Positions 2,674 to 43,339 of a stretch of 47,848 nucleotides of DNA are shown here, one piece after another. Position 1 is the first letter of the stretch, and every line of letters starts with the position of its first letter. The notes below the pieces were generated by a model. The model was not told where the DNA came from. It saw nothing but the letters and a program-made list of their open reading frames with translations, and did no database searches. The translations under genes and the position numbers were made by a program. Origin of the DNA: Candidatus Sulfomarinibacteraceae bacterium (lineage in GTDB: Bacteria; Acidobacteriota; Thermoanaerobaculia; Thermoanaerobaculales; Sulfomarinibacteraceae); assembly GCA_041552055.1 (NCBI GenBank), contig JBFELO010000020.1, positions 1 to 47,848 on the forward strand, in the 5' to 3' direction.

Positions 2674-3975
2674 ATGACAGCGCCGGTCATCACCATCGCC
2701 GAACTCGCCGAGCATGTCGGACAGGAGGTCACCCTCCGGGGATGGGTGTACAACTGGCGCAAGAAGGGCAAGCTCCGTTTCATCATCCTGCGCGACGGAT
2801 TCGGTTACCTGCAGTGCGTCGTATTCCGCCCGGAGGTGGCCGAAGACGTTTGGGAGACCGCGGTCGAGCTCACCCAGGAGTCGTCGCTGGAGGTCATCGG
2901 AACGCTGGTCGCCGACGACCGCGCTCCGGGCGGATTCGAGCTCAAGGTTGTCGGGCTGCGGCCGATCCAGATCGCTCCCGAGTACCCGATCGGAAAGAAG
3001 GACCACGGCCCGGACTTCCTCCTCAACCACCGCCACTTGTGGTTGCGGTCGCGTCGCCAACACGCAATCTTGCGGGTGCGATCGGAGCTGGAGCGGGCGA
3101 TTCATGACTTCTTTCACGCGCGCGGCTACACCCAGATCGACTCGCCCATCCTCACGCCGGCCGCCGCCGAGGGGACCTCGACGCTGTTCGAGACCGACTA
3201 CTTCGGCGACACCGCCTTCCTGTCCCAGTCCGGCCAGCTCTACCTGGAGCCGGCCGCCGCTTCGCTGGGCAAGGTGTACTGCTTCGGGCCTACCTTTCGG
3301 GCGGAGAAGTCGAAGACCCGCCGCCACCTGACCGAGTTCTGGATGGTGGAACCCGAGGTGGCGTGGTTGCGTTTCGACGGCCTGCTCGATCTCTGCGAGG
3401 AGTTTCTCCGCGAGATCGTCGCCCGAGTCCTCGACCGTTGCAGGGTCGACCTGGATCGGCTCGAGCGCGACATCTCCAAACTGGAGCCGGCGGCCAGCGG
3501 GTCATACCCGAGGTTGGACTACGCGGATGCGATCAACCGTGTGCAGGAACTCGGACACGAGATCCAATTCGGGGACGATTTCGGCGCCGACCAGGAAGCC
3601 GAGTTGACCAGGCAGTTCGATCGGCCGTTCATGATCACCCGCTTCCCGGCTGCAGTGAAGGCGTTCTACATGGAGCCCGATCCGGACGATCCAGAGCGCG
3701 TCCTCGCCGTCGATGTTTTGGCACCGGAAGGCTACGGCGAGATCATCGGCGGGTCCGAACGCGCCAACTCGCTGCAGCACCTCGAGGCTAGGGTGGCCGA
3801 GCACGATCTACCCCGCGAGGCCTACGAGTGGTACCTCGATATCCGCCGGTACGGCACCTTCCCCCACTCCGGCTTCGGCATGGGAATCGAGCGCTGCGTG
3901 GCGTGGCTGTGCGGGGTGCCCCACCTGCGAGAGACGATTCCCTTTCCGAGGATGTTGAATCGGCTGTATCCCTAG
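2674..3975 (+). CDS. asnS: asparagine--tRNA ligase (class IIb aaRS; archaeal-type AspRS not excluded)
   Basis: LRGWVYNWRKKGKLRFIILRDGFGYLQCVV anticodon-binding N-terminus, FRAEKSKTRRHLTEFWMVEPE motif 2 and GFGMGIERCVAWL...IPFPR motif 3. ATG at 2674 is preceded by GAGAGGAG with a 5 nt spacer. 433 aa. Confidence 0.8.
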   Translation: MTAPVITIAELAEHVGQEVTLRGWVYNWRKKGKLRFIILRDGFGYLQCVVFRPEVAEDVWETAVELTQESSLEVIGTLVADDRAPGGFELKVVGLRPIQIAPEYPIGKKDHGPDFLLNHRHLWLRSRRQHAILRVRSELERAIHDFFHARGYTQIDSPILTPAAAEGTSTLFETDYFGDTAFLSQSGQLYLEPAAASLGKVYCFGPTFRAEKSKTRRHLTEFWMVEPEVAWLRFDGLLDLCEEFLREIVARVLDRCRVDLDRLERDISKLEPAASGSYPRLDYADAINRVQELGHEIQFGDDFGADQEAELTRQFDRPFMITRFPAAVKAFYMEPDPDDPERVLAVDVLAPEGYGEIIGGSERANSLQHLEARVAEHDLPREAYEWYLDIRRYGTFPHSGFGMGIERCVAWLCGVPHLRETIPFPRMLNRLYP

Positions 3976-10972: not shown

Positions 10973-11527
10973 ATGAAAAACGTCGTCCTTGCTGGCATCA
11001 CGTTTTTGCTCATCGGGCTACCCGCGATGGCCCAGGAGATTCACATCGACTATGACCGGTGGGCGCGCTTCACGACGTTCAAGACCTTCGCCTGGCACCC
11101 CACCGAGGAGACCTCGCTGGTCGAAGTCTCTGACCTGATGCACGAGCGCATCAAGAACGCGATCATCACCCAGCTCTCCAGCGGCCGGCTGACGCAGGTC
11201 GAGGAGGATCCGGATCTGTACGTTACCTACCACGCCAGCGCACGGGAAGCCATGCGGCTCGACACGGCCTACTGGGGCTACGGATTCCCGAGCAGCTGGT
11301 ACTGGGACCCGTACTGGGGCGGCATGGGAATGACGACCACCACTGCGAGCACCTACACGGAGGGAATCCTGATCGTCGACATCTGGGATGCTCGGGAGGA
11401 AACCCTGGTGTGGCGCGGATCCGCCATCGCCACGGTGTCCGCCAATCCCGAGAAGAACGCCAAGAAGATCGACAAGGCGGTCAAGAAGCTGGCCAAGAAG
11501 TGGGAGAAGATGAAGCCCGGGTTCTAG
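10973..11527 (+). CDS. secreted DUF4136-like protein
   Basis: Signal peptide MKNVVLAGITFLLIGLPAMAQE. The mature domain has a lysine-rich C-terminus. Local GC content is lower than in neighbouring genes. Confidence 0.5.
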   Translation: MKNVVLAGITFLLIGLPAMAQEIHIDYDRWARFTTFKTFAWHPTEETSLVEVSDLMHERIKNAIITQLSSGRLTQVEEDPDLYVTYHASAREAMRLDTAYWGYGFPSSWYWDPYWGGMGMTTTTASTYTEGILIVDIWDAREETLVWRGSAIATVSANPEKNAKKIDKAVKKLAKKWEKMKPGF

Positions 11528-18461: not shown

Positions 18462-19598
18462 ATGAACCCGCTGAAGGATCCCCTCCGACTCGATATCCTG
18501 GAGCGCTTCGCCGTCTCGTTTCGCGCCGACTTCCGTTTCGCTCCCGTGAACATCGCCATCCTGGTCGTGTTGTGCCTGGCGGGACTGGCGATCCACCTCG
18601 CCGTGCATCCGTTCGAACTCGAGGCGGTGATCTCGATGGTGGCTGTCGCAGTCGGACTGGCAGTGCTGTTCCGCTTCTCACAGATCTGGGAATCGGTGCT
18701 GGTCGGTTCGGTGCTTGCCGCGCTCGGGGTGTACCTGCGGCACCGACCGGACAGCGGCATCCTGGTAACGACCGTCGTGGTTGCCGGCCTGCTCGCCCCC
18801 TGCCTGCAGGTGGCGTACCAGTGGGAGCGCGCACTGCTGCTCAGGTTCGGGAAGTTTCGCGGCCTGCGCGGGTCTGGCCTCTTCACAGTGGTCCCGGTGA
18901 TCGACAAGGTCGCCAACTACGTGGACCAGAGGATCCGGGTCACCGACTTCAAGGCCGAGACGACGCTGACCAAAGACACCGTGCCGGTGAACGTGGACGC
19001 CATCGCGTTCTGGATGGTGTGGGACGCGGAAAAGGCGGTGTTGGAGGTCGCCGATTTCGACCATGCCGTGACGCTGTCGGCGCAGACCGGTCTGCGGGAC
19101 GCGATCGGCAAGCACGAGCTCGGCGAGATGCTCTCCCGCCGCGACCGCCTGGGCCAGGAGATCCAGCAGGTCCTGGACGTCAAGACCAATGCCTGGGGGA
19201 TCACTGTTCAGTCGGTCGAGATCCGGGACATCATCATCCCTAAGGGCCTCGAGGACGCCATGAGCAGGCAGGCGCAGGCCGAGCGTGAGCGTCAGTCCCG
19301 GATCATCCTGGCCAATGCCGAAACCGAGATCGCCGAGAAGTTCGCCCAGGCCTCCGAACACTACCGTCACAATCAGGCGGCGCTCCACCTGCGGGCGATG
19401 AACATGGTGTTCGAGGGGCTCAAGCAGAAGGGCTCGATGGTGATCGTGCCCTCGACCGCAGTGGAGACCATGGGGCTCGGCGCCATGGGCGGCCTCACCG
19501 CGTTCGATCGGATCCTCGGCGGGGGAACCGGGGACGTCGATGCGCAGCCCGCGACTCCCCCAAAGGAATCGACCGATGATGCGGAGCAAAACGACTGA
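18462..19598 (+). CDS. SPFH/band-7 (stomatin/prohibitin-like) membrane protein
   Basis: N-terminal transmembrane helices then ALLLRFGKFRGLRGSGLFTVVPVIDKV…VNVDAIAFWMVWDAEKAV… SPFH core and a coiled-coil Ala/Glu-rich tail. ATG is preceded by AAGGGAG. Confidence 0.85.
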   Translation: MNPLKDPLRLDILERFAVSFRADFRFAPVNIAILVVLCLAGLAIHLAVHPFELEAVISMVAVAVGLAVLFRFSQIWESVLVGSVLAALGVYLRHRPDSGILVTTVVVAGLLAPCLQVAYQWERALLLRFGKFRGLRGSGLFTVVPVIDKVANYVDQRIRVTDFKAETTLTKDTVPVNVDAIAFWMVWDAEKAVLEVADFDHAVTLSAQTGLRDAIGKHELGEMLSRRDRLGQEIQQVLDVKTNAWGITVQSVEIRDIIIPKGLEDAMSRQAQAERERQSRIILANAETEIAEKFAQASEHYRHNQAALHLRAMNMVFEGLKQKGSMVIVPSTAVETMGLGAMGGLTAFDRILGGGTGDVDAQPATPPKESTDDAEQND

Positions 19599-26795: not shown

Positions 26796-27769
26796 CCGTC
26801 AATCTCGCCAGTGAACCTGTCGAGTTCCTCGACGATCGGTGCGTCGTGCATGTACAGATTGGTGGGACACTCCACTGCTCTGCCGTGCGGCATACCGGCG
26901 ACAATCTGCCGTACTTCCTGCTCGCTGTGCAAGGTATCGCTGCCGGCGTACGCGATCGCTACAGGGACCTCGATCGTGTCGAGATCGGGCCATACCCGAT
27001 AGTCGAGGATCGCCCTGGCGGACAGCTTGAGCCGCAGCGGATGCGCGGCGCGCAACGTCCTCTCGTACCTCTCCATCTGCTCCGGCTCCGAACGAGTATC
27101 GATCCTGAAGTGGCGCAGGTACCAGAACACGAAGTACTTGATCGGGTGATACAACCAGGCCGGCCCGTACAACACCGGCCGGCCCCACGCCGGGATCCGA
27201 AACGACGCGTTCGGGCCCACGAGGAACGCCGCCCTCGCCGCGAGCCGGCCGCGTTTGAGGGCCTCGAGAATGGCGTTGGATCCCATCGAACTCCCGAACC
27301 ACACCGCACGCCGGTCGTCCAGACCCAGCGACCGGGCGGCCGCGATCAGGTCGAGCGCGAGCCTCTCGACGGTGAACTCCTCGACCCGCATGCGGCGCCG
27401 GTCGATCCGCGCCGACCGCTTCTCCCGAGTCTCGATGTACAGTACCGGACGTGTCTCGACCATTGCCTCGAGCACCGGCAGCCACCCTTCGACGACCGAA
27501 ACCCAGCCGGCGACGAATACCAGCGGTTCGCCATCGCTGGAGTCGCGCGGCCACCAGTGCAGAACGCGCAACTCGATTCCGTCGTCAACGGCGAGCCACC
27601 GCTCGTCGAATTCCGACTCGACAACACCGAGAGGATTGCTCGGCCGCCCGAAGTACGTCGAAGTTTCCACTGCCCATGCACCTGTGCTCTCACGATGATA
27701 GACCGATCTCGCACGTGCTGAAGCCGGCCTCGTGTGAGAGATCGCCGTCCCTGCCCGTGTGGCTCCCAC
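26792..27769 (-). CDS. alpha/beta-hydrolase fold protein
   Basis: VWFGSSMGS nucleophile elbow (GxSxG). Alternative GTG start at 27670. Confidence 0.6.
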   Translation of the reverse strand: MGATRAGTAISHTRPASARARSVYHRESTGAWAVETSTYFGRPSNPLGVVESEFDERWLAVDDGIELRVLHWWPRDSSDGEPLVFVAGWVSVVEGWLPVLEAMVETRPVLYIETREKRSARIDRRRMRVEEFTVERLALDLIAAARSLGLDDRRAVWFGSSMGSNAILEALKRGRLAARAAFLVGPNASFRIPAWGRPVLYGPAWLYHPIKYFVFWYLRHFRIDTRSEPEQMERYERTLRAAHPLRLKLSARAILDYRVWPDLDTIEVPVAIAYAGSDTLHSEQEVRQIVAGMPHGRAVECPTNLYMHDAPIVEELDRFTGEIDG

Positions 27770-27818
27770 ATTTCCTTCGGGTGACCACCACCGTGAATTA
27801 CGCTGCTACACTGGCTCG

Positions 27819-28148
27819 ATGAGCGATCCACGGGATCACGAGCTGCCGATTGTCGGGCAGGATCAAGGGTCTAACCCGTCCAACGACCTGCCATCGTGCT
27901 CGCCCGAGGTCTACGTCACCAACGAGGAGGCGTCTCTTCTGGCGGCGATGCGGGCGATGAAGGGTCGCGCCACTGAGATCCGCGAGCGCCTGGCGGACCC
28001 TCTGTCCGGTGACGAGCGCAGCGCGCTCTCGGCCGAGCTGGAAGAGCTGCGCACTCGCCGGACCGAACTTACCCGGCGCCGGGACCGAGCCTACCGCCGC
28101 AAGATGGTCATGCTCGGCCACCTCCCACCCGACGCCCTCGTGGACTGA
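27819..28148 (+). CDS. hypothetical protein (109 aa), coiled-coil-rich C-terminus
   Basis: ATG ORF with no recognisable family. Confidence 0.35.
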   Translation: MSDPRDHELPIVGQDQGSNPSNDLPSCSPEVYVTNEEASLLAAMRAMKGRATEIRERLADPLSGDERSALSAELEELRTRRTELTRRRDRAYRRKMVMLGHLPPDALVD

Positions 28149-28317
28149 CCCTCCCCCGTTAACCTCCATCGTCGTTGTCATCGACCGCCACCCGTCCGTC
28201 GCTGGTCGCTGGTCGCTGGACCACCCAGCCGCCCGGGGCATGCCGCGATGCGGCTGTACGGCAATACGGCTCCTCCACCCGCCCAGAGCACCCTCGTTAT
28301 CGACCACCTGACTTCCC

Positions 28318-28451
28318 GTCATCCTGAGGGAGGAGCGAGCCGTAAGGCGAGCGACGAGTCGAAGGATCCCCCGAAGCAAGAGCGCCGACGCGATCGGGTC
28401 GTCTCTCCGGAGATCGGAGGGGATCCTTCGGCCTTGCGGCCTCAGGATGAC
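28318..28451. repeat. 134-bp nested palindrome: outer 12-bp inverted repeat GTCATCCTGAGG/CCTCAGGATGAC, inner stems CGAAGGATCCCC/GGGGATCCTTCG and CCGACGCGATCGGGTCG, centred on GATC
   Basis: All three stem pairs read directly from sequence. The element sits inside a ~740 bp non-coding gap (28149-28885). Confidence 0.45.
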
Positions 28452-28761
28452 ACTCGGTTTCGGTGCCGCCGCGTAGACTGCTGCGGCCTCGAGCCTGGCG
28501 CTGTCGCGCGAAGGAGTGCTGGTGCGGTGCCCCGCCCTGCTCGCGGGCGGGAGGGGGCCCAAGCCCCGAGTCCCTAGCCCCGAGCCCCTTGGTGCGTCCT
28601 GCTAGCCCGCGCTTCTCACCAGTGTTCGTCGCGAAGGCGCCGAGGTGCCGTGCCCAGTGGGGTTTTCGACCCAGAGCCCCGGAGGGGCCGGCGGGGGCTG
28701 GAGCACACCGAGGGGAGAAGTCTCCGCTGGGTCAGGAGCATCGTTCGATCCCGATGGCGAG

Positions 28762-28824
28762 ACCGATAGCGATACCGACGAATCTGGTCGGTATCGGAAT
28801 CGGTTTTCGGTATCGGTATCGACT
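28762..28824. repeat. Inverted hexamer-array element C: (ACCGAT/AGCGAT) units inverted against (ATCGGT/TATCGG)x6
   Basis: ACCGATAGCGATACCGAC gaatctg GTCGGTATCGGAATCGGTTTTCGGTATCGGTATCGAC. Confidence 0.45.
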
Positions 28825-28885
28825 ATCCCCGTTCGATCTGAGCGGCGGTTCGCGGCCGCAGCAGGAGACTGGTGAGAAGTGCGGG

Positions 28886-29572
28886 TTACATCTCGACCCG
28901 ATTTCGCCCCGATCGCTTGGCCACCGAAAGCGCGCGGTCGGCCGCGGCGATCAGCGAGGTCGGATGCTCCTGGGGACTCGGCACGATGGTGGCAGCACCG
29001 ACGCTGACCGTGATCCGGTGCCCGTCGGTCTCCGGCCCCGAGGTCATCTTGAGGTCCTCCACCGCCTGCCGCACCCGCTCCGCCACAGCGAGCCCACCCG
29101 CGGCGTCGGTCTCCGGCAGCAGCACGGCGAACTCGTCACCGCCGTAGCGCGCCACCACGTCGCCGGGCCGCTGGAGCTGCAAACGCACCGTCTCTGCAAT
29201 CTGGCGCAGGCACTCGTCCCCCGCCTGATGCCCCCGGCTCTCGTTGTACAGCTTCAGGTCGTCCACATCGACAATCAGCAGTGTCAGCGGCAGTCGCGAC
29301 CTGGCGGTGCGGCGCCACTGTGCCTTCAGGTTGTCCTGGAATGTTCGGTGGTTCGCGATCCCGGTGAGTGGATCGCCGTCGGTCATCTCCCGGAGCGCCT
29401 TGTTCGCCTTTTCGAGCTGCTGCGACCGTTCCTCGACCGTCCTCTGGAGCTGCCCGGCGCGTTCATCGAGCTCCCCGATCCGCCGGCGCAGTCGTCGATT
29501 GACAATCCAGGCTACCACCAGCACGAGTGCAGCCGGCAACCACACGATGGGTTCGGTCAGGGTCTCCAGCAT
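28886..29572 (-). CDS. GGDEF diguanylate cyclase with N-terminal transmembrane helix and coiled coil
   Basis: …DPLTGIANHRTF… RYGGDEFAVLL catalytic motif. Confidence 0.8.
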   Translation of the reverse strand: MLETLTEPIVWLPAALVLVVAWIVNRRLRRRIGELDERAGQLQRTVEERSQQLEKANKALREMTDGDPLTGIANHRTFQDNLKAQWRRTARSRLPLTLLIVDVDDLKLYNESRGHQAGDECLRQIAETVRLQLQRPGDVVARYGGDEFAVLLPETDAAGGLAVAERVRQAVEDLKMTSGPETDGHRITVSVGAATIVPSPQEHPTSLIAAADRALSVAKRSGRNRVEM

Positions 29573-42039: not shown

Positions 42040-43023
42040 TCAACCCCCCATGGACACCATCGGCAGGTCCGATTCCATAGCCGACGAGGCGGTCTTGCCC
42101 GCCAGGTAGGCGTGGAGCCGGCTTCGCACCTCCGGCTCGATCGTTGTCTCGAGCAATCCCGCGAGATCGAACCGGACCGGATCCATCAGGCATCGCCGCA
42201 CCCGGCCCCTGGCGTCGAGACGCAGCCGCGAACAGCTGTCGCAGAACGGACGGGACCTCGGCGTGATCCACCCCACCCGCACCGCAACGCCTCGCCACCG
42301 GATCATCGAAGGGCGTGCCGGTCCCGGCGACGCCGATCGATCGTCGACGACCTCGGTGCGGCTCCCTAGCCAATCCCGCACCTCGTCCGCCGACACGTAC
42401 TCCCGCTCGGCCCACGCGACCTCGGTGCCCGTGCGCATCAGCTCGATGAACCTGATCTCGAGTCCCTGCCTGCCGGCGAAGTCGAGCAGTAGCGGCACGT
42501 CGGATCGCCAGTTCGACGAAAGCAGCACCGCGTTCATCTTCACTGGAGTCAGGCCACAGTCCAACGCGGCGCCGATCCCGGCCAAGGTGTCAGCCAGCCG
42601 ACCGCCGCGTGTCAGCTCTGCGAACCGCCGTTCGTCGAGGCTGTCCACGGATACGTTGACCCGGGACAGGCCGGCCCCACGAAGCGACGGTGCCAGATCC
42701 ACCAGTCGGGCGCCGTTGGTGGTCGCCGACACTTCGGAGACCCCTGGGATCGCCGCCAGTGATTGCACGAGACCGACCACGCCGTCCCGTAACAACGGCT
42801 CACCGCCAGTCAGTTTGACCCTGCTCACGTCGAACTCGCGGCTCAGCCAGGCGACGGTGTCGGCCAGCCTTTCGAGCGGCAACAGATCTTCACGGCGGAG
42901 CTTCCCGATTCCGGCGGCAGGCATGCAATAACGACAGCGCAGGTTGCAGCGATCGGTGACCGACACCCGGATCACGGCATCTTCAGGGCGCTGCCGGTGC
43001 GGCCCTCGCTGTCCGGTCACCAT
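42040..43023 (-). CDS. moaA: GTP 3',8-cyclase (radical SAM)
   Basis: …IRVSVTDRCNLRCRYCMP… CxxxCxxC radical-SAM cluster and MoaA C-terminal domain. ATG at 43023 is preceded by GGAAAGGAG. Confidence 0.85.
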   Translation of the reverse strand: MVTGQRGPHRQRPEDAVIRVSVTDRCNLRCRYCMPAAGIGKLRREDLLPLERLADTVAWLSREFDVSRVKLTGGEPLLRDGVVGLVQSLAAIPGVSEVSATTNGARLVDLAPSLRGAGLSRVNVSVDSLDERRFAELTRGGRLADTLAGIGAALDCGLTPVKMNAVLLSSNWRSDVPLLLDFAGRQGLEIRFIELMRTGTEVAWAEREYVSADEVRDWLGSRTEVVDDRSASPGPARPSMIRWRGVAVRVGWITPRSRPFCDSCSRLRLDARGRVRRCLMDPVRFDLAGLLETTIEPEVRSRLHAYLAGKTASSAMESDLPMVSMGG

Positions 43024-43339
43024 TCGGTCTCCTTTCCAAGCCGGGAGGCCGCCGCGTTTCCACCGCGACCCTTGGGGCTCCGGAGCGCCACGCTCCGCCC
43101 ACCGTTCGACGACCCATGGGCATCTGTCCGTTAGGCTCGTCGAATCGGAGACTGCTTCATTCATAGGATATAGGAGTTTTCGGGCCCGTGCGCAAGTCCC
43201 AACCGTCCCCGTTCCCGAATCGACGACGATCTCAACATACCCCTGCCCCCGAAGAATTGACCTTCCCCCGATCTCGGGAAACCCCGATCGAGTACCGAAA
43301 CGCGCGACACCCGAACTCTGAGGTCAGAGCTGTTCAGGG
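43024..43339 (-). ncRNA. long 5' leader of moaA; candidate molybdenum-cofactor (Moco) riboswitch
   Basis: A 316 nt untranslated gap lies upstream of the moaA-moaC-moaB operon. On the minus strand there is a TATATC-like -10 island, several hairpins (GGAGCGTGGCGCTCC; CGCGGTGGAAACGCG) and a GGCCUCCCGG…AAAGGAG segment that could pair with the ribosome-binding site. Confidence 0.3.

Follow-up and report, generated by a model that had tools for sequence, protein, structure and literature searches.

What is the 134-bp palindrome that lies between two convergent genes on a contig of a Candidatus Sulfomarinibacteraceae bacterium? It stands in a stretch of 47,848 nucleotides (contig JBFELO010000020.1, positions 1 to 47,848; hereafter the window), in a spacer between convergent 3′ ends at 28149–28885 which a first-pass annotation, made from the letters of the DNA, had put at ~740 bp of non-coding sequence and which indeed spans 737 bp between the ends of the two genes. 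That annotation described a triple-nested palindrome centred on GATC (28318–28451) and offered three candidates for it: a structured small RNA, an element like the miniature transposable elements with inverted repeats (MITEs) or a cruciform-forming regulatory site. The analysis presented here shows that the palindrome is made of two inverted copies of one hairpin unit of ~30–50 nt. We consider it likely that they represent a convergent pair of oriented DNA hairpin repeats related to the targets of the Ssn nucleases, of the class termed Ssn-related motifs (SRMs), and that both are predicted targets of a nuclease acting on single-stranded DNA. The element is no new class, but a variant within a type of repeat that was described recently.

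The Ssn system is presented here as described in the main text of Chenal et al. (2025, Nat Commun, PMC11893778). SsnA from Neisseria is a 94-aa single-domain GIY-YIG protein (CDD cd10448) that binds and cuts the hairpin repeat NTS, CGTCATTCCCGCGMAVGCGGGAATCYRG, the prototype of the SRMs, as single-stranded DNA only and not as RNA, the cut falling a few nucleotides upstream of the repeat. The three nucleotides 5′ of the NTS palindrome govern cleavage, while the C just 3′ of it is the key nucleotide for binding. Homologues of Ssn occur in many phyla, flanked by SRMs, and the NTS-ssnA-NTS layout is likened in that text to insertion sequences, to the repetitive extragenic palindromes (REP) and bacterial interspersed mosaic elements (BIME), and to IS200/IS605.

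Two inverted copies of one hairpin unit

The element has three parts:

28318–28368, + strand: left arm, GTCATCCTGAGG followed by a 30-nt extended stem-loop with a GTAA loop and by CGAAGGATC; covariance model R1 match at 28315–28373; match to the strict family pattern

28369–28421: inter-arm spacer of 53 nt, which starts with CCCC and ends with GGG, continuing the dyad symmetry, and holds a weak CGAC/GTCG mini-stem around GCGATCG

28422–28451, − strand: right arm, the canonical unit GTCATCCTGAGG-CCGCAAGG-CCGAAGGATC; covariance model R1 match at 28417–28454

Both 12-bp inverted repeats seen in the first pass are exact, the outer (28318–28329/28440–28451) and the inner (28360–28371/28419–28430) each being 100% complementary. 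The description of a triple-nested palindrome centred on GATC nevertheless overstates the symmetry of the element, given that its layers have different centres, 28384.5 for the outer pair and 28395 for the inner pair; the 21 nt by which the left arm's stem-loop is the longer account for the offset. The innermost palindrome, CCGACGCGATCGGGTCG, is present but amounts to a 4-bp CGAC/GTCG stem, which on our reading of the sequence, made by inspection and not by shuffling, is expected by chance in GC-rich DNA.

The repeated unit has the consensus yGTC-AT-YCT-GA-GG...stem-loop...CC-GA-AGR-AT-C. Each half of the element, read on its own strand, runs GTCATCCTGAGG, stem-loop, CGAAGGATC(CCC), such that ATCCT can pair with AGGAT and the two GA dinucleotides can form a tandem G.A step (we refer to arms of this kind as GA-type). 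Both arms carry GTC-AT at the 5′ end and ...GGAT-C at the 3′ end. The features that define an SRM are found in them, namely an imperfect palindrome of 20–50 nt that forms a hairpin on one strand, (C/Y)GTC immediately 5′ of a palindrome starting with AT, and a C directly 3′ of it.

Covariance-model scores and shuffling place both arms well beyond chance. Model R1, which was built from 84 arms of other, unrelated organisms, assigns 48.6 bits to the right arm (E 1.5e-11) and 30.3 bits to the left arm (E 2e-6), while nothing in the rest of the 47.8-kb window scores above 10.7 bits. The 140 nt that hold the element (28315–28454) fold as DNA more stably than 200 out of 200 shuffles (z −3.9 and −3.6), and the right arm alone folds into the exact family structure (−7.3 kcal/mol, z −2.3). 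Comparison of the element with plasmids by blastn gave no match.

The 30-nt insert of the left arm (28330–28359) can be read as a 'G.A zipper' in which four tandem G.A/A.G steps alternate with standard pairs, one or two at a time and one of them a G.T, with a GTAA loop closing the stem and one bulged G. We infer this pairing from the sequence, and nearest-neighbour folding does not recover it.

Spread, conservation and covariation of the family

A scan of one genome per species with the exact pattern GTCATYCTGAGG N5-35 CGAAGRATCC returned at least 120 loci, as did a scan of metagenomes for one arm subtype. To judge from the titles of the genome loci among the matches listed, the hairpin unit occurs in more than 15 phyla, among them Acidobacteriota, Firmicutes, Chloroflexota, Patescibacteria, Omnitrophota, Synergistota, Melainabacteria, Planctomycetota and Proteobacteria, and it is found on two viral contigs as well.

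The Y/R pair of the stem reveals covariation within each arm. Among matches to the strict pattern this pair is T..A in 81 cases, C..G in 60 and any other combination in three. On alignment A1 (UA 48, CG 32, UG 1, other 3) the observed covariation score lies above those of all 500 shuffles, and the pairing collapses when the partner column is shifted by sliding. A set of 182 arms that had not been selected by the scan patterns is 95% Watson-Crick at the same pair, and presents strongly conserved flanks: G at −3 (92%), T at −2 (92%), C at −1 (96%), Y at −4 (93%) and C at +1 (171 of 182, 94%), followed by Y at +2. No conservation beyond yTGTCAT...ATCCc was seen in the aligned arms.

Pair architecture and target sites

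Adjacent arms no more than 120 nt apart were counted as pairs. Convergent pairs, in which the GTCAT ends point outward as they do in the window, predominate both in the genome loci (42, against 13, 5 and 2 for the other orientations) and in the independent metagenome loci (49, against 10, 7 and 2); arms are also found singly, in tandem and in the other orientations. The spacers measure from 4 to ~110 nt, a range that includes the 53 nt of the window. Across the 42 convergent genome pairs the spacers are 4–89 nt long and differ in sequence, often starting with C(C) and ending with (G)G, and no conserved spacer motif was seen in these pairs from other genomes. There is likewise no sign of a target-site duplication, as direct matches between the flanks of 87 pairs equal the permutation expectation for lengths of 1–5 nt.

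A C..G arm is combined with a T..A arm in 22 of the 42 pairs, which gives a mismatch if the arms pair with each other. Since about half of the pairs are mixed in this way, the long nested hairpin is a by-product of the inverted duplication and is not separately maintained. The ~60-bp nested hairpin that had been predicted for the window is thus the thermodynamically favoured fold for this C..G/C..G copy but not the conserved structure of the family, in which the covarying pair is an intra-arm one.

Associated GIY-YIG genes and likeness to NTS

All-against-all clustering of the open reading frames (ORFs) in the 120 genome loci listed yielded one family situated between arms, a single-domain GIY-YIG protein (PF01541) of ~95 aa. 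A profile made from these arm-adjacent proteins gave seven strong hits (E ≤1e-42) among the 240 arm-selected loci listed. All seven have arms within 83 nt on both sides, compared with four of 3861 control ORF segments of similar length. A metagenome locus (L231, 7787–11024) packs two paralogous genes for Ssn-like GIY-YIG proteins and as many as 15 GA-type arms into 3.3 kb.

Homologues of the GIY-YIG protein on viral contigs (43–51% identity) are bordered by other SRM variants in convergent pairs, and the hairpins of these variants have a common GTCAT...ATC frame and different stems. At the viral loci L144 and L145 the flanking hairpins match the published SRM string, while those at L142 and L143 are NTS-like, GTCATTCCCG...CGGGAATCC. 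A viral Ssn-like gene at L146 is flanked (2835–3000 and 3280–3460) by a sister type, GTCATTGCGAGG...CGAAGCAATC, which keeps the GTCAT/ATC frame and the G.A step and presents a TGC/GCA stem instead of YCT/AGR. The L146 type hints at hairpin types that form a co-varying series. When compared with NCBIfam and with PDB sequences, the associated GIY-YIG proteins returned no specific family name and only the distant UPF0213 structures 1ZG2 and 1YWL.

At L194 (1356–1685, − strand) the arm is read through as 'VILSEAKD' in a stop-to-stop frame upstream of the Ssn-like gene. Such arms probably give rise to false N-terminal extensions and to tiny hypothetical ORFs in annotations.

The GA-type arms thus resemble NTS and the SRMs as oriented hairpin repeats of ~30–50 nt, mostly intergenic and present in many phyla. 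Their palindrome has AT at its start and end, as in the ATTCCC...GGGAAT of NTS, and their invariant 5′ GTC and 3′ C correspond to the NTS positions on which, according to mutagenesis, cleavage and binding depend. At the level of the family, finally, the repeats are found on both sides of genes for ~95-aa single-domain GIY-YIG proteins. In contrast to the GC-rich stem of NTS, the GA-type stem contains a tandem G.A/A.G step (CTGAG...CGAAG), and GA-type arms occur mostly as convergent pairs, an arrangement absent from the main text of PMC11893778. The GA-type consensus was not found printed in the searchable literature, which in the case of PMC11893778 comprises its main text, and the arm sequence used as a text query returned primers or nothing.

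Genomic context and history of the locus

The genes, spacer parts and other features around the element, with one feature from elsewhere in the window, are:

27819–28148, + strand: conserved 109-aa hypothetical protein, upstream flank; start as in public assemblies

28149–28190: ancestral part of the spacer, ...CATCGTCG..GTCATCGACC, alignable directly after the 109-aa stop codon in L133, L138, L139 and L141

28191–28885: lineage-specific extra DNA of ~690 bp that holds the hairpin pair; left boundary approximate

28744–28847: separate ~102-nt unit with a strong hairpin at 28762–28804; present here in a single copy, as context and not as part of the hairpin pair

28886–29572, − strand: 228-aa GGDEF diguanylate cyclase (PF00990, E 2e-44), convergent downstream flank

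43013–43162, − strand: molybdenum cofactor (Moco) riboswitch RF01055, 68.8 bits against a gathering score of 36; the sole Rfam family at threshold in the window

The 109-aa gene ends at 28148 on the + strand and the stop codon of the GGDEF gene occupies 28886–28888. The claim that this gap is the longest gene-free stretch holds inside the 20.6 kb with gene calls from the Joint Genome Institute (JGI; L123), and for the whole window it is plausible from a crude codon-composition check. The 109-aa protein is 100% identical to P0001 and has homologues at 44–83% identity. Contigs from several JGI metagenomes and two metagenome-assembled genomes from NCBI match the window at 99.8–100% identity.

The gene order common to this region is an OPT transporter, a 294-aa gene and the 109-aa gene, then the convergent GGDEF gene and an adenine glycosylase. 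Relatives whose 109-aa protein is 66–75% identical have the same order, with gaps of 58, 97 and ~103 nt and no arm, so that the comparative alignment called for in the first pass did reveal syntenic relatives without the element. Only the first ~40 nt of the gap align with these relatives, and the remaining ~690 bp, including the hairpin pair, are therefore lineage-specific extra DNA. The hairpin pair thus lies in DNA that is absent from related genomes. The rest of the ~690 bp has no copy elsewhere in the window and contains no detectable Ssn remnant and no Rfam match.

The unit at 28744–28847 is a further repeat, unrelated to the hairpin pair, and varies in copy number: other assemblies from this population (L123–L128) carry it as a tandem duplicate, the second copy being ~96% identical. 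It is rich in CGATAC/TCGGTA repeats, and its strong hairpin (minimum free energy as DNA −18.1 kcal/mol, z −4.6) is followed by TTTT.

Tandem Repeats Finder identified further repeats in the lineage-specific DNA, namely (GTCGCTG) x3.1 in perfect copies at 28198–28219 and the 14-mer CCCTAGCCCCGAGC x2.3 at 28558–28589. What had been noted as CCCCGAG triplet repeats is a genuine repeat, but one that consists of this 14-mer x2.3, or of a 7-mer x4.4 at 79% match. The gap contains other, long-range inverted repeats (I1, I2 and I13), the order of which does not allow a single helix; they were treated as GC-rich chance matches. Short-read (Logan) contigs from this population stop at 28852–28859 in several cases, and the contig of the closest relative (L137, 83% identity) runs out 23 nt past the 109-aa stop codon; breaks in assemblies seem to fall beside the gap.

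Outside the gap, the sequence GTCGTCATTCCC...34 nt...GGGAATCC at 11278–11337 (− strand) resembles the frame of Neisseria dRS3/NTS. It lies inside coding DNA and scores 10.7 bits (E 0.6), and the resemblance is probably due to chance. A 16-nt match at 18473–18488, in the start of a coding region, was also treated as chance.

Proposed mechanism

In the mechanism that we propose, each arm would fold on its own strand when the DNA becomes single-stranded, as in replication, repair, uptake or conjugation. The fold would consist of a 5-bp AT-Y-CT/AG-R-AT stem, the tandem G.A/A.G step, GG/CC and a variable stem-loop, bracketed by the 5′ GTC and the 3′ C. By analogy with NTS and SsnA, a cognate Ssn-type nuclease would bind each arm and cleave it, nicking a few nucleotides 5′ of yGTCAT; the predicted nicks fall at ~28312–28315 on the top strand and at ~28454–28457 on the bottom strand. 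As the arms are inverted, there would be one such nick on either side of the element, each on a different strand, and the REPIN-like unit could then be copied or excised without a target-site duplication. The element may stand between convergent 3′ ends because insertion there is harmless, and a terminator or mRNA-stabilising effect, if any, would be secondary.

Sequence, structure and covariation place both arms of the window in the hairpin family, and elsewhere in this family convergent pairs dominate and Ssn-like genes are tightly flanked by arms. A number of observations nonetheless weigh against the reading of the palindrome as a pair of SRM-class nuclease targets. The published SRM string, HGTCWYN(0-2)YYVSBRHN(0-5)WNVSBRGN(0-2)RNCYNB, which matches NTS and NTSvar as positive controls, fails on all 140 GA-type arms compared and has no match in the window. 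Profile search detected no Ssn-like gene in the 47.8-kb window or the gap, and tblastn with 12 Ssn-like proteins, aimed at a decayed ssn gene in the same DNA, gave noise only. The locus thus differs from NTS and the SRMs in that an ssn gene is missing from its vicinity and that the ~52 kb of source genome covered (the window and ~4 kb beyond, which holds no further arm) contain just one hairpin pair. No sibling copies in the source samples were found among the at least 120 metagenome matches listed, which come from unrelated metagenomes. Furthermore, the whole ~690 bp differs from the relatives, and no pair of filled and empty sites with exact element ends was found; the element may be a lone relic, or it may have arrived together with the surrounding ~690 bp. 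The canonical fold of the left arm is not its minimum-energy fold under the nearest-neighbour model. The associated GIY-YIG proteins are putative members of cd10448, through homology to proteins flanked by string-matching SRMs, and we infer the cleavage positions and the mobility of the pairs by analogy.

Alternative explanations

Two alternatives would place the function of the palindrome in the transcripts or the chromosome of the host. A structured small RNA, or a self-cleaving ribozyme of the twister-sister kind, transcribed from the gap would agree with the finding that 28310–28460 (151 nt) folds as RNA better than most shuffles on both strands (z −2.5 and −2.4), and with a weak twister-sister match at 28369–28444 (− strand; 17.6 bits, E 0.9) in which CGCAAGGCCGA and GGCGCUC fit the consensus. 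That score is half of the gathering score of 34 for RF02681, however, and P1 would hold a C.C mismatch and two G.U pairs, while the matched CCGCAAGGCCGA belongs to the variable stem-loop of the arm, which reads AGCGAAGCGA, GCGAAGC and the like in other members of the family. The Rfam comparison of the gap that the first-pass annotation had advised, performed at gathering and at permissive thresholds, produced no family at threshold and this sub-threshold match only; 12 arm-rich loci gave no family at threshold either. As the arms lie on both strands of the element, any transcript would carry one of them as a U.C/C.U hairpin and not in the G.A form. The characterised nuclease ignores RNA, SsnA binding single-stranded DNA only according to the main text of PMC11893778. 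The syntenic relatives, moreover, have no such element, and a small RNA at this site is unsupported and to our mind exceedingly improbable. A hammerhead reading of CUGAGG...CGAAGG was rejected as well: a hammerhead core requires CUGANGA...GAAA, and no hammerhead family was retrieved even at E up to 10. It is also improbable, if less remotely so, that the palindrome is a regulatory hairpin selected by the host between convergent genes, which would terminate transcription in both directions, stabilise mRNA 3′ ends or form a cruciform independently of any nuclease. REP elements of E. coli act as hairpins of the terminator or stabiliser type, and the element of the window both lies between convergent 3′ ends and can form a very stable long hairpin on either strand. 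Yet no terminator-like site with a U-tract occurs in 27700–29300, and the syntenic relatives manage with a gap of 58–103 nt and no hairpin, from which it follows that the neighbouring genes do not need it. Host selection would also leave unexplained the recurrence of GTCAT...ATC across more than 15 phyla and the flanking of GIY-YIG genes. The hairpin may have a regulatory effect in a secondary, co-opted role.

The other two alternatives would treat the palindrome as mobile DNA and assign it to a different enzyme. A classical MITE, derived by deletion from an insertion sequence with a DDE transposase, would have the 12-bp repeats as its terminal inverted repeats; these are perfect and stand at the ends of an element that has no coding capacity and lies in DNA absent from relatives. 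Bacterial MITEs such as the Correia elements (PMC10969869) are similarly small, non-coding and intergenic with inverted-repeat ends. Here, in contrast, the 87 pairs show no target-site duplication, and the conserved unit is a self-complementary, self-folding hairpin with internal covariation, found also singly or in tandem, and not a transposase-binding end. The sole associated gene among the loci listed encodes the ~95-aa GIY-YIG protein, and no parent with a DDE transposase was found. A MITE-like element came nearest to the mark of the three candidates of the first pass, in that the palindrome is a gene-less copy of a repeat family in extra DNA, but the hairpins are not transposon ends and we regard a classical MITE as very improbable. 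Scarcely credible, finally, is a REP or REPIN element mobilised by a REP-associated tyrosine transposase (RAYT, an IS200/IS605-like Y1 transposase) rather than by a GIY-YIG protein. REPINs and BIMEs share the layout of the element, with two inverted short palindromic repeats, a short spacer, an intergenic location and no target-site duplication (REPIN definition in PMC3116915 and PMC3337134; REPIN and BIME in PMC3116915 and PMC2817692). Both systems have a single-copy, repeat-flanked gene whose product is presumed to mobilise or maintain the repeats, which are recognised as hairpins of single-stranded DNA. The enzyme is an HUH/Y1 transposase in REPINs, whereas here it is a GIY-YIG nuclease, and the arm consensus lacks the REP-typical GTAG tag and has CGTC in a minority of arms only (C at −4). 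REP sequences are specific to a species or genus, whereas the sequence of the GA-type hairpin is conserved across phyla. ORF clustering, which included no dedicated Y1_Tnp profile scan, showed no recurrent neighbour family other than GIY-YIG among the 120 genome loci listed. The 5′ GTC and 3′ C, by contrast, fit the Ssn determinants mapped experimentally in the main text of PMC11893778.

Implications for the Ssn/SRM system

The reading of the palindrome as a convergent pair of SRM-class hairpins replaces a vague call of palindrome, small RNA or MITE with a testable identity, that of a predicted target which a site-specific single-strand DNA nuclease would bind and cleave. The results extend the published description modestly, by the widespread G.A-step type and by the predominance of convergent pairs without target-site duplication. 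They suggest that the Ssn/SRM system has a very widespread hairpin variant with a G.A step that falls outside the published search string; because the string misses arms of this type, counts made with it leave such arms out. The dominance of REPIN-like convergent pairs is relevant to the possible mobility of Ssn genes and their repeats. We entertain with reserve, as a possibility rather on the unlikely side, that GA-type pairs represent a mobile element in its non-autonomous form, one that spans phyla and for which the ~95-aa Ssn GIY-YIG nuclease acts as the 'transposase', the copy in the window being a recent insertion. If this were true, the system would be a GIY-YIG counterpart of REPIN/RAYT and of IS200/IS605, with nicking 5′ of the outward GTCAT and with the pair, or a pair-ssn-pair unit, copied or excised without target-site duplication. 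Each of the hairpins is, in addition, a candidate recognition sequence for new tools that cut single-stranded DNA.

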